NCBI RefSeq assembly: GCF_000621645.1
Contig: NZ_JHXR01000016.1
Location: forward strand, 1-32,000
DNA: 32,000 nucleotides
Origin: Vibrio cholerae ATCC 14035
GTDB taxonomy: Bacteria > Pseudomonadota > Gammaproteobacteria > Enterobacterales > Vibrionaceae
Reading direction: 5' to 3'
The stretch's first letter is position 1, and each line of letters begins with the position of its first letter. Position numbers and translations under genes: made by a program. The notes below the pieces were generated by a model that saw nothing but the letters and a program-made list of their open reading frames with translations, had not been told where the DNA came from and did not search any database. This document shows positions 3,843 through 8,380 of this stretch, one piece after another.

Positions 3843-4421
3843 ATGTCTGTAGAATTTTACAATCAAAATGCACAGCAGTTTTTCTCTTCCACTGTCGAAG
3901 TCGATTCCACTTCCCTACTTGACCAGTTTGTACCTTACTTACCTCAAGGTGGATTAGTGTTAGATGCAGGGTGCGGCTCAGGACGAGATAGTAAACGATT
4001 TCTAGATATGGGCTATCAGATCGATGCTTTTGATGCCAGTGCACCTTTAGCGGCTTTGGCTGAAGAACTACTCAATCAATCTGTCACTGTGACTACCTTC
4101 GAGAACTTTACCTCTAGTAAACGCTATGACGGAATTTGGGCTTGTGCTTCCCTACTGCATGTCACGAGAGAATCGTTACCGGAGACGTTTGCTCACTTAG
4201 CAAAAATGCTCAAGTGTGGCGGTGCTTTTTACTGCTCATTTAAATATGGTCAGGACGAGGTAGAGAGAGATGGGCGTCGCTTCACCAACTGTAATGAAGT
4301 CCTTTTAAATCAATTACTCACCTCTTCACCGCTAGCCATCGACAAGCTTTGGGTGACACAAGATCTCAGAGCAGGGCGTGAACATGAACAATGGCTCAAT
4401 GCCATATTAATTAAGCGTTAA
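3843..4421 (+). CDS. Class I SAM-dependent methyltransferase (small-molecule type fold)
   Basis: Motif I VLDAGCGSGRDS followed by the acidic-loop FDAS. It is a compact 192-aa Methyltransf_11/23-like layout. AGGAGG lies at 3825-3830. No DPPY/NPPY or PC/ENV DNA-methyltransferase motifs were seen. Confidence 0.8.
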   Translation: MSVEFYNQNAQQFFSSTVEVDSTSLLDQFVPYLPQGGLVLDAGCGSGRDSKRFLDMGYQIDAFDASAPLAALAEELLNQSVTVTTFENFTSSKRYDGIWACASLLHVTRESLPETFAHLAKMLKCGGAFYCSFKYGQDEVERDGRRFTNCNEVLLNQLLTSSPLAIDKLWVTQDLRAGREHEQWLNAILIKR

Positions 4422-4424
4422 GTG

Positions 4425-7430: not shown

Positions 7431-8135
7431 ATGATAGTAAAAGAAAAAACACATATTAAAACTAGTAATTTCAAACAAGACTTAGGCAATCAAGTAGAAA
7501 ATGATGTCGCATTCTATTTGAGACGTCATTTTTCCGAAAATGAGAGCATCTTCATTTATAATGATTTACGTATTGAGCATAAAGGTGAAATCGCACAAAT
7601 AGACCACCTTGTTGTTTATAAAAAAGGGTTTGTTATTATTGAATCAAAATCCATCAAGGGTACTGTTCAAATTAACAAACAGCTAGAATGGCAAAGAACG
7701 GTTCGTGGAAAATGGGTCGGCATGCCATCTCCTATCACCCAAGCAGAAATGCAAACCAAACTATTGAAAGCATTATTAAATGATAATGCAGAACAGTTAC
7801 TAGAAAAGATATTAATGCTTCAAGGCTATTTTGGCGGCCGATGCTGGGACACTCTTTGCGCGGCTTCGAATGATGCAATCATCGATAGAGACAACATCCC
7901 ATCAAAAATATCACCAATGATTATTAAATCAGAACAAATTGCTAATCGAGTGGAAGAAATAATAGCTAGTAGATCGAGTATCTTAAAACCAAATCCAACA
8001 TTTAGTGATAATGAGCTTCAAAATATTAAAAACTTCTTAATTGAAGCACACAAGAACCCGTTAATCGAAGATAAAAAATTCACTAATAAGTTCAATAAAC
8101 CAGATAACATTACACATCAAACAGAAAAAAAATAA
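7431..8135 (+). CDS. NERD (nuclease-related domain) protein, apparently truncated before its zinc-ribbon tail
   Basis: NERD pattern GNQVENDVAFYLRR...IYNDLRIEHKGEIAQIDHLVVYKKGFVIIESKS. The ORF stops at TAA 8133-8135, immediately after an A8 run (8125-8132). Confidence 0.8.
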   Translation: MIVKEKTHIKTSNFKQDLGNQVENDVAFYLRRHFSENESIFIYNDLRIEHKGEIAQIDHLVVYKKGFVIIESKSIKGTVQINKQLEWQRTVRGKWVGMPSPITQAEMQTKLLKALLNDNAEQLLEKILMLQGYFGGRCWDTLCAASNDAIIDRDNIPSKISPMIIKSEQIANRVEEIIASRSSILKPNPTFSDNELQNIKNFLIEAHKNPLIEDKKFTNKFNKPDNITHQTEKK

Positions 8136-8380
8136 ACATCTCAAATCCTTGGTTTATATGTAAGGAGTGTTCAAGTAATAACACCTCACCAAAATATGGG
8201 AAATTTGGATATTATGTCACCTGTAAAGATTGTAATAAGAACACATCAATGAACGTAGCTTGCATAAAATGTGGGAATAGAAAAACCCATGTATCAAAAG
8301 ATAAAAACACTTATACTGTAAGTTGCGAATGTGGTCATAAAGTAGAGTATGAATATCAATCATTAGAAAAAACAGCATAG
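8108..8380 (+). other. Out-of-frame coding segment for a double C4 zinc ribbon (topoisomerase-type), the likely original C-terminus of the NERD gene
   Basis: This frame is open from 8108 to TAG 8378-8380. My translation reads ...INISNPWFICKECSSNNTSPKYGKFGYYVTCKDCNKNTSMNVACIKCGNRKTHVSKDKNTYTVSCECGHKVEYEYQSLEKTA. It has two CxxC...CxxC / CxxC...CxC units and no plausible own start. One extra A in the A8 tract would fuse it in frame to the NERD ORF. Confidence 0.7.

Follow-up and report, generated by a model that had tools for sequence, protein, structure and literature searches.

A methyltransferase and a SauUSI-like nuclease-helicase with a predicted LexA-type autoprotease domain: a candidate defence module bordering the pathogenicity island VPI-1 of Vibrio cholerae

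The window analyzed here, a stretch of 32,000 nucleotides (nt) of Vibrio cholerae ATCC 14035 (assembly GCF_000621645.1, contig NZ_JHXR01000016.1, positions 1 to 32,000), contains three consecutive open reading frames (ORFs) on the forward strand, which encode a small methyltransferase, a large protein combining a PLD-type nuclease, a helicase-like motor and a Peptidase S24 domain, and a NERD nuclease followed by a zinc-ribbon segment (Table 1). An initial annotation of this stretch had proposed that the three genes form an uncharacterised defence operon. Our ORF calls agree with the packing on which this proposal was built: the TAA stop codon of the methyltransferase gene (4419-4421) abuts the GTG start codon of the large gene at 4422, with an ATG following at 4425, and the spacer between the stop of the large gene and the start of the NERD gene (7362-7430) is 69 nt long, with a GC content of 0.22. 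The region from 3843 to 8380 is also AT-richer than the core genome, and the insertion sequence (IS) and the HipA-type toxin module that had been noted beside it were recovered as an IS481-type transposase and a HipA-like gene with a helix-turn-helix (HTH) gene, both upstream. The large protein is identical to the V. cholerae O395 protein ABQ21589, the methyltransferase to Q9KTS5_VIBCH, and the 234-residue NERD product to Q9KTS7_VIBCH. Counting from the VC0807-family gene, the methyltransferase, helicase and NERD genes probably correspond to VC0813, VC0812 and VC0811, respectively; a literature match for 'VC0812' was set aside as a typing error for VCA0812. Some authors count VC0810 within pathogenicity island 1 of Vibrio (VPI-1), and an early island predictor had the TCP island start at VC0813. 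The methyltransferase/helicase module is thus located at the edge of VPI-1, and pandemic V. cholerae, classical as well as El Tor, carries it there.

Table 1. Coordinates of the module, its predicted domains and sites, and neighbouring features in the window (aa, amino acids)
Feature	Position	Strand	Details
Class I S-adenosylmethionine (SAM)-dependent methyltransferase	3843-4421	+	192 aa; Pfam Methyltransf_25/23/12/11, TehB
Large protein: PLD(HKD) nuclease, SF2 (superfamily 2) DExH motor, helical coupler, predicted S24 autoprotease	4422-7361	+	979 aa
PLD/HKD nuclease domain	4503-4868	+	aa 28-149; Pfam PLDc_2; single HxK (H107, K109), GSNN 129-132
SF2 helicase-like ATPase	5073-6101	+	aa ~218-560; ResIII 6.9e-38, Helicase_C 2.1e-13
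Helical 'coupler'	6204-6941	+	aa ~595-840; all-helical, pLDDT above 90 in the AlphaFold2 (AF2) model
Peptidase S24 domain (LexA/CI/UmuD-type)	6948-7292	+	Pfam Peptidase_S24 8e-6; Ser883 codon 7068-7070, Lys935 codon 7224-7226
Predicted self-cleavage site Ala845-Cys846-Gly847	6954-6962	+	UmuD-type Cys-Gly; IACG motif
NERD (PD-(D/E)xK) nuclease ORF, truncated	7431-8135	+	234 aa; Pfam NERD 1.1e-19
A8 run, frameshift site	8125-8132	+	1-nt deletion: C lost from GAA-ACA-AAA-ATA
Orphaned double zinc-ribbon segment	8132-8380	+	-1 frame relative to NERD
IS481-type transposase	9-992		upstream of methyltransferase; domain search
HipA-like toxin and HTH module	1581-3415		upstream of methyltransferase; HipA-like gene overlaps downstream HTH gene
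Terminator-like hairpin	8409-8431	-	between convergent genes; T-tract on minus strand

The homology of the large protein to SauUSI, a type IV restriction enzyme, is clear. It matches the SauUSI structure (PDB 7CLG) over residues 14-664 (E = 1e-86) and the PADLOC family mREase_IV over residues 32-592 (2.4e-88), and the first part of its helical coupler still aligns to that of SauUSI. The latter enzyme combines a PLD nuclease with an SF2 ATPase, a helical coupler and a target-recognition domain (TRD) of the SRA fold, and it dimerises through its nuclease domain (PMC7913695). In an alignment of 22 sequences the histidine and lysine of the single HKD motif (H107/K109) and GSNN (129-132) in the nuclease, as well as the Walker A motif GMGKT (247-251) and DEFH (334-337) in the motor, are invariant; from homology and the invariance of these catalytic motifs, the protein is most likely a dimeric, ATP-dependent PLD nuclease powered by an SF2 motor. 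A DUF3427/SRA domain, which stands C-terminal to S24 in longer relatives, gave no Pfam match in the window protein, which therefore falls into the class with S24 and without a TRD. Viral contigs yielded only distant SauUSI-like relatives, and the family is thus not typically phage-borne.

The C-terminal part of the protein has a different affinity. An AF2 model of residues 580-979 (pLDDT 88.8) shows the helical coupler followed by a beta-rich domain, for which all 12 of the 12 best Foldseek matches in the PDB are lambda CI, LexA or UmuD, with target-normalised TM scores of up to 0.75; the top match is CI bound to the RecA filament, and the RecA-filament complexes 8GMU, 8GMS and 8GMT are among the matches. 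The putative catalytic dyad, S883 and K935, is invariant in the 22-sequence alignment. All 60 of the 60 S24-bearing family members have the IACG motif, located 37 +/- 2 residues N-terminal of the catalytic serine, and all of them have G[NDS]SM, which in nearly all members is followed by LLRxVxK; these motifs are kept down to 43% overall identity. In LexA the scissile bond and the dyad are A84-G85, S119 and K156, in UmuD they are C24-G25, S60 and K97, and the predicted geometry of scissile site, serine and lysine in the window protein is that of UmuD and LexA. By homology, the S24 module would be an intact autoprotease, as it displays every sequence and fold hallmark of self-cleaving S24 proteins.

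The methyltransferase encoded upstream has a normal SAM-binding motif I (LDAGCGSGRD), and its family shares an invariant core, WACASLLH. It is modelled with high confidence (AF2, pLDDT 96) as a single domain of 192 residues, whose closest structural neighbour is an uncharacterised structural-genomics protein, followed by protein N-terminal methyltransferases including NTMT1, small-molecule and sugar N-methyltransferases, TehB and Trm9; none of its 50 nearest PDB folds is a DNA methyltransferase. Neither (D/N/S)PP(Y/F/W) nor PCQ, the catalytic motifs of DNA methyltransferases, is present in its sequence, and it has neither a TRD nor a specificity subunit. The best PADLOC match is the methyltransferase domain of mad2 (1.2e-15), which is confined to the generic Rossmann region, and a PHROGs search returned only generic helicase and tRNA-methyltransferase matches. 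Sequence and structural model alike mark this protein as something other than a canonical DNA methyltransferase, and a DNA base of the classical kind is improbable as its substrate. The fold likeness to NTMT1 had suggested N-terminal methylation of the new Gly847 end of the large protein, an idea that we set aside, since nucleases without an S24 domain have the methyltransferase as a partner, too.

There are abundant homologues that possess the complete PLD-helicase-S24 architecture, and we analyzed 80 loci from contigs representing one genome per species together with the window, i.e. 81 loci in total (individual loci are designated by L numbers below). A methyltransferase homologue lies directly 5' of the helicase on the same strand in 40 of the 81 loci, and in another 33 it is fused in frame to the helicase N-terminus. 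Of the eight remaining loci, four are interrupted by contig ends, so that the pairing holds in 73 of 77 evaluable loci, which come from Gamma- and Betaproteobacteria, Geomonas, Acidobacteriota, Verrucomicrobia and Cloacimonadota. The methyltransferase is always first in gene order and, in fusions, attached at the PLD end; separate genes meet at junctions of -16 to +18 nt, most often -4. The divergence of the two proteins is correlated (r = 0.73, p = 2e-11, 61 loci), and unbiased clustering of all neighbouring ORFs revealed no further partner whose occurrence exceeded 11 loci. The picture is the same when loci are collected by way of the methyltransferase: Shewanella oneidensis MR-1 has a clean two-gene unit, and in Plesiomonas the methyltransferase is found with a shorter PLD-helicase adjoining Wadjet. 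The methyltransferase accompanies all three architectures of the large protein, being fused to it in 28 of the 37 loci with S24 and an SRA TRD, adjacent in 20 of the 26 loci with S24 only (the type found in the window), and present in 13 of the 13 loci with neither; a TRD never occurs without S24. The functional unit predicted from these comparisons consists of two genes, methyltransferase and helicase, and not of three. Two loci of this set have genes of nucleotide metabolism at the position in question. In L012 (2783-10658), genes for a 5'-nucleotidase, a DEAD-helicase-PRTase (phosphoribosyltransferase) protein and a DprA/SLOG protein lie between methyltransferase and helicase, and in L072 (9463-9969) a NUDIX gene takes the place of the methyltransferase beside the helicase, which may hint at a nucleotide-linked function.

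Within V. cholerae, the helicase gene is an intragenic recombination mosaic. Compared with the window, the allele at locus L172 contains a sharply bounded tract of 2.2 kb (4900-7116, + strand) that takes in motor and coupler as well as the beginning of S24, and in which nucleotide identity drops to ~45-81% (~70% overall). The large protein as a whole is 79% identical between the two alleles, the proteins encoded by the flanking genes are 97-100% identical, and the methyltransferase and the PLD domain are ~100% identical. The methyltransferase thus tolerates an exchanged motor and coupler.

The methyltransferase family is also found with nucleases of another type. In Vibrio parahaemolyticus (L167-L169, about 6001-7574) a family member overlaps an HNH gene by 4 nt, in the setting of an integrase/AlpA/VapE satellite-like island whose downstream cargo, made up of recognised defence genes, varies between OLD-TOPRIM with UvrD, two reverse transcriptases (RTs) with SLATT, and CTD4/MComp1. 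Fused methyltransferase-HNH_4 proteins of ~570 residues are encoded at L142 and L088. The combination of methyltransferase and HNH protein looks like a sister candidate system of the type 'methyltransferase plus nuclease'. BLASTP identified no docking region common to the HNH partners and the helicase, and in a comparison with the PDB only the HNH motif of the HNH partner was matched.

The third gene of the locus is not the single intact NERD-zinc-ribbon gene that had been supposed. The NERD frame ends at a stop codon (8133-8135) straight after the A8 run, and the Cys-rich segment runs on in a different frame. This segment is 100% identical to the C-terminus of an intact allele of 316 residues (P0121, L172), which reads ...HQTETKINIS... 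at the corresponding site, so that the loss of a single C accounts for both the A8 run and the frameshift. Intact NERD homologues comprise 305-350 residues with two zinc ribbons, and D58, E71 and K73 as well as seven cysteines are invariant in the family. The truncated product is encoded on at least 1000 contigs and is therefore a real allele rather than a sequencing error. Other V. cholerae strains retain the 316-residue form, and the NERD gene of L172 is intact as well. In pandemic V. cholerae lineages the NERD protein is thus predicted to be inactivated or crippled, with both partner genes intact where it is frameshifted. The A8 run also constitutes an A_AAA_AAA slippery heptamer at which a -1 slip would restore full-length NERD, and the site could conceivably allow frameshifting at a low level, slippage during transcription or reversion.

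Taken together, we estimate with a probability of about 0.6 that the methyltransferase and the SauUSI-type nuclease-translocase with its LexA-like switch form a candidate, uncharacterised system against phages or plasmids at the VPI-1 edge, and the module is best read as a variant of SauUSI-type restriction gated by predicted autoproteolysis. According to this proposal, the large protein would cleave itself between Cys846 and Gly847 and release its C-terminal ~133 residues (in longer relatives S24 plus the SRA domain), and cleavage would toggle the nuclease-motor between restraint and activity. As all characterised members of the fold suggest by analogy, it would most likely be triggered by the filament of RecA on single-stranded DNA that forms during phage replication or DNA damage, and the nuclease might have a protective or regulatory partner in the methyltransferase. 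A more specific version must be regarded as tentative: here the nuclease-translocase would be licensed by RecA-filament-stimulated self-cleavage, bypassing transcription, and the non-DNA-type methyltransferase would serve as a portable safety or marking module for PLD-helicase and HNH nucleases. The genes near the module or its sisters include PDC-S62 (in the window), Wadjet, OLD/UvrD and RT/SLATT; together with the satellite defence hotspots that house sister modules and with the intragenic recombination mosaic, they speak for a defence-type context.

A number of observations weigh against this interpretation. The Pfam score of the S24 domain is modest (26 bits, with a cut-off of 23.3), and S24 domains elsewhere also function as dimerisation modules. 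Among 76 evaluable members, 13 have no S24 but retain the methyltransferase; S24 is therefore not essential to the core activity. A search for SOS boxes gave 7 one-mismatch matches compared to 10.5 expected, and no SOS box upstream of the module. The full order of methyltransferase, helicase and NERD gene recurs at L081, whose helicase is only 52% identical, and in a reciprocal scan of 80 metagenomic loci with NERD-zinc-ribbon (NERD-Zn) genes, 20 of the 52 evaluable loci contain a methyltransferase-family or SauUSI-like gene within 8 kb. Finally, judged from sequence alone, the classical restriction-modification (R-M) scheme considered below retains some probability. The architecture is undescribed in the literature searched, which did not cover a possibly related MANTIS preprint citing SauUSI.

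Since NERD-Zn genes stand near such modules far more often than expected by chance and the arrangement recurs at L081, some functional cooperation with NERD may exist. The same data can be cited for the obligate operon of methyltransferase, PLD-helicase-S24 and NERD-zinc-ribbon genes that the initial annotation had put forward, as can the common strand and tight spacing of the genes, between which no terminator-like site of the + strand exists (none was found inside 3843-8380), the arrangement with an intact NERD gene at L172, and the position of NERD beside the helicase at L006, L017, L027 and L070. We nevertheless consider an obligate three-gene unit improbable. NERD lies within ~300 nt of the helicase in only 5 of the 81 loci, leaving 76 without it, and in those five its side and strand vary (upstream, downstream or antisense); it is likewise not present at the S. 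oneidensis MR-1 and Plesiomonas loci, and it also occurs alone among housekeeping genes. Its composition differs from that of its neighbours: the NERD gene and the convergent membrane-protein gene behind it have a GC content of 0.33-0.35 (0.25-0.28 at third codon positions, GC3), compared to 0.44 (GC3 0.38-0.39) for methyltransferase and helicase; for the NERD gene itself the values are 0.33 and 0.28, against 0.44 and 0.38. An operon in which all three genes are required is further at odds with the frameshift that is fixed in pandemic lineages next to two intact partners. Rarity, composition and frameshift together therefore argue that NERD is not an obligate component, and of the three-gene co-conservation originally expected, the methyltransferase-helicase part stands and the NERD part falls. 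We infer that the NERD-Zn gene is a facultative, separately acquired neighbour of the 'backup nuclease' type, which the core pair does not need. Neighbours of NERD-Zn genes are of three kinds, namely canonical PLD-helicase-DUF3427 proteins, members of the methyltransferase family that are either fused to an HNH nuclease or paired with one, and the pair with S24, and this pattern matches published findings that stand-alone NERD nucleases are located at defence-system borders, possibly as backup effectors (PMC10853773). At a further locus, in V. paucivorans (L083, 4038-6975), a NERD-Zn homologue is arranged head-to-head with genes for a TehB-like methyltransferase and for an HNH_2 nuclease, the latter bearing a ScoMcrA-type sulfur-binding (phosphorothioate-reading) domain.

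Three other explanations concern the core pair itself. In a classical R-M system, whose fused form would resemble ISP/IIG enzymes, the methyltransferase would mark host DNA and the nuclease-motor would cut the unmethylated invader. Such a system would account for a translationally coupled methyltransferase-nuclease pair with the methyltransferase in first position, for its frequent fusion into one polypeptide, for the additional pairing of the family with HNH nucleases and for the PADLOC match to mad2, the DNA N6-methyltransferase of MADS. It is unlikely, however, in view of the missing DNA-methyltransferase motifs, folds (0 of 50) and specificity determinants described above and of a mad2 match limited to the Rossmann region; in addition, the nuclease has a modification-dependent enzyme as its closest characterised relative, and the reader domain of longer relatives is of the SRA type, which recognises modified bases. 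With regard to the S24 domain, we also doubt that it never cleaves and acts solely as a structural or dimerisation module or as a dock for the RecA filament, which would make the protein a SauUSI-like enzyme with an unusual C-terminus. The C-terminal domains of LexA, CI and UmuD do dimerise, dimerisation is required of a PLD nuclease with a single HKD motif (PMC7913695), and both the modest Pfam score and the members without S24 would fit, but the retention of Ser, Lys and the Ala-Cys-Gly loop in every S24-bearing member is hard to explain without catalysis. It is very improbable that the protein is a DNA-repair or SOS-tolerance factor, i.e. a RadD/UmuD-like helicase recruited to RecA filaments and not involved in defence. 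Similarity to RadD (NCBIfam 2e-25), the UmuD-like domain and the position of the MR-1 pair amid ordinary chromosomal genes are compatible with such a role; the homology to SauUSI is far stronger than that to RadD, though (1e-86 compared to 2e-14 in the PDB), and a PLD nuclease domain, the lack of an SOS box, a patchy and island-borne distribution with defence genes as neighbours, and the recombination mosaic all speak against it. A SauUSI-type nuclease-motor under the control of a predicted autoprotease, paired with a methyltransferase, thus remains our preferred interpretation.

The surroundings of the module contain several other features. Upstream, an 89-nt palindrome (1493-1581) is located just 5' of the HipA-like/HTH module, and the HipA-like gene is probably VC0815, which is known from the literature as a toxin-antitoxin (TA) toxin of 453 residues and fits this gene. 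An ssrA attachment-site scar, which had been reported at this place, could not be recovered: tRNA/tmRNA and Rfam scans found none, and no partial tmRNA match at E <= 1 exists within 900-3900. The hairpin noted after the zinc-ribbon segment does exist, and no terminator-like site of the + strand precedes it within 3843-8380, but its T-tract lies on the minus strand, and the convergent gene at 8469-8984 is the one that it most plausibly terminates. Overall, terminator-like sites show no enrichment (7 found, 4.8 expected), and a megablast search of the region against E. coli genomes gave no match. The convergent gene (8469-8984, - strand) encodes a predicted membrane protein of 171 residues with no family match in Pfam, NCBIfam, PADLOC or PHROGs; its GC content (0.345) is low like that of the NERD gene, which it adjoins in L172, too. 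Further downstream, a gene for a SWIM zinc-finger protein of 589 residues (9176-10945, - strand) matches PADLOC PDC-S62 near end-to-end (E = 7e-266) and is a second candidate defence gene of this islet. Between these two genes lies one of two copies of a dispersed repeat of ~130 nt (9028-9158), which is inverted relative to, and 88.6% identical with, the other copy at 15561-15692; the latter is called V_AS5 by Rfam (15564-15688), and by eye the repeat resembles ERIC-type elements.

If S24 gates the nuclease, the module would represent a new kind of restriction control, in which a nuclease is activated or shut off post-translationally by autoproteolysis, possibly through sensing of the RecA filament; the chemistry of SOS sensing would then be wired directly into an immune effector. 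The obligate association of one methyltransferase family with at least two unrelated nuclease types suggests a widespread 'methyltransferase plus nuclease' design distinct from classical R-M. The recombination mosaic of the helicase gene and the inactivation of NERD in pandemic lineages are evolutionary signals at the VPI-1 border, and with homologues in V. cholerae and S. oneidensis MR-1 there are tractable hosts in which the hypothesis can be addressed.

How, then, does the module compare with known systems? That the gene set matches no named system was correct for the defence systems originally listed: PADLOC, run on the segment, recognised none of their signatures, and for Mokosh, Hachiman, Gabija, Shedu, Druantia and DISARM there was no match beyond a weak one of DrmC to the PLD domain (4e-4). 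The statement does not extend to type I-IV R-M, given the SauUSI homology of the large gene; the architecture as such was described in none of the papers found. Likeness to MADS of Pseudomonas aeruginosa is restricted to single domains, with the methyltransferase matching mad2 and the NERD protein matching MAD6 (7e-8). MADS comprises eight genes, including an N6-methyltransferase, a specificity subunit, a kinase and ATPases, and mad2 is its N6-adenine DNA methyltransferase; membership was rejected on account of a MAD6 score of 31 bits (NCBIfam cut-off 460), the Rossmann-only match to mad2 and the absence of other mad genes. As with the NERD nucleases at Dnd and BREX borders (PMC10853773), the NERD gene borders a nuclease-helicase module, and the side and strand on which it does so vary; in contrast to them, it belongs to a type with a C-terminal double zinc ribbon, whose neighbours are SauUSI-type and methyltransferase-HNH modules rather than Dnd or BREX.

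The fused forms of the family, with methyltransferase, nuclease and motor (plus the TRD in long forms) in one chain, resemble Type ISP/IIG enzymes such as LlaGI, LlaBIII and MmeI, and a similar linear layout has been pointed out for SauUSI itself (PMC7913695). However, Type ISP/IIG enzymes use an Mrr/PD-(D/E)xK nuclease, whereas the window family has a PLD nuclease, a TRD of the SRA type and a TehB/NTMT-like methyltransferase devoid of DNA-methyltransferase motifs. With LexA, lambda CI and UmuD, the window S24 domain shares the fold including the region of the cleavage site, the dyad of Ser and Lys and, ~37 residues ahead of the serine, an Ala/Cys-Gly site. In those proteins S24 is joined to a DNA-binding domain of the HTH type or to a short tail, whereas here it follows a nuclease-motor of ~840 residues, and its dependence on RecA is suggested by analogy at a locus that has no SOS box. 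SauUSI is the closest counterpart: in both proteins an N-terminal PLD nuclease with a single HKD motif is followed by an SF2 DExH translocase and then by the beginning of the helical coupler, and the SRA/DUF3427 end of SauUSI is found in longer family members as well. Yet the window protein has no SRA/DUF3427 TRD and SauUSI no S24 domain, and SauUSI is encoded by a stand-alone gene, whereas the window family has a methyltransferase as obligate partner or fusion. The module, which would work like a SauUSI-type restriction enzyme, thus departs from SauUSI in two of its defining features, the SRA TRD and the stand-alone status, and adds two that SauUSI lacks, a putative S24 autoprotease and a methyltransferase partner.

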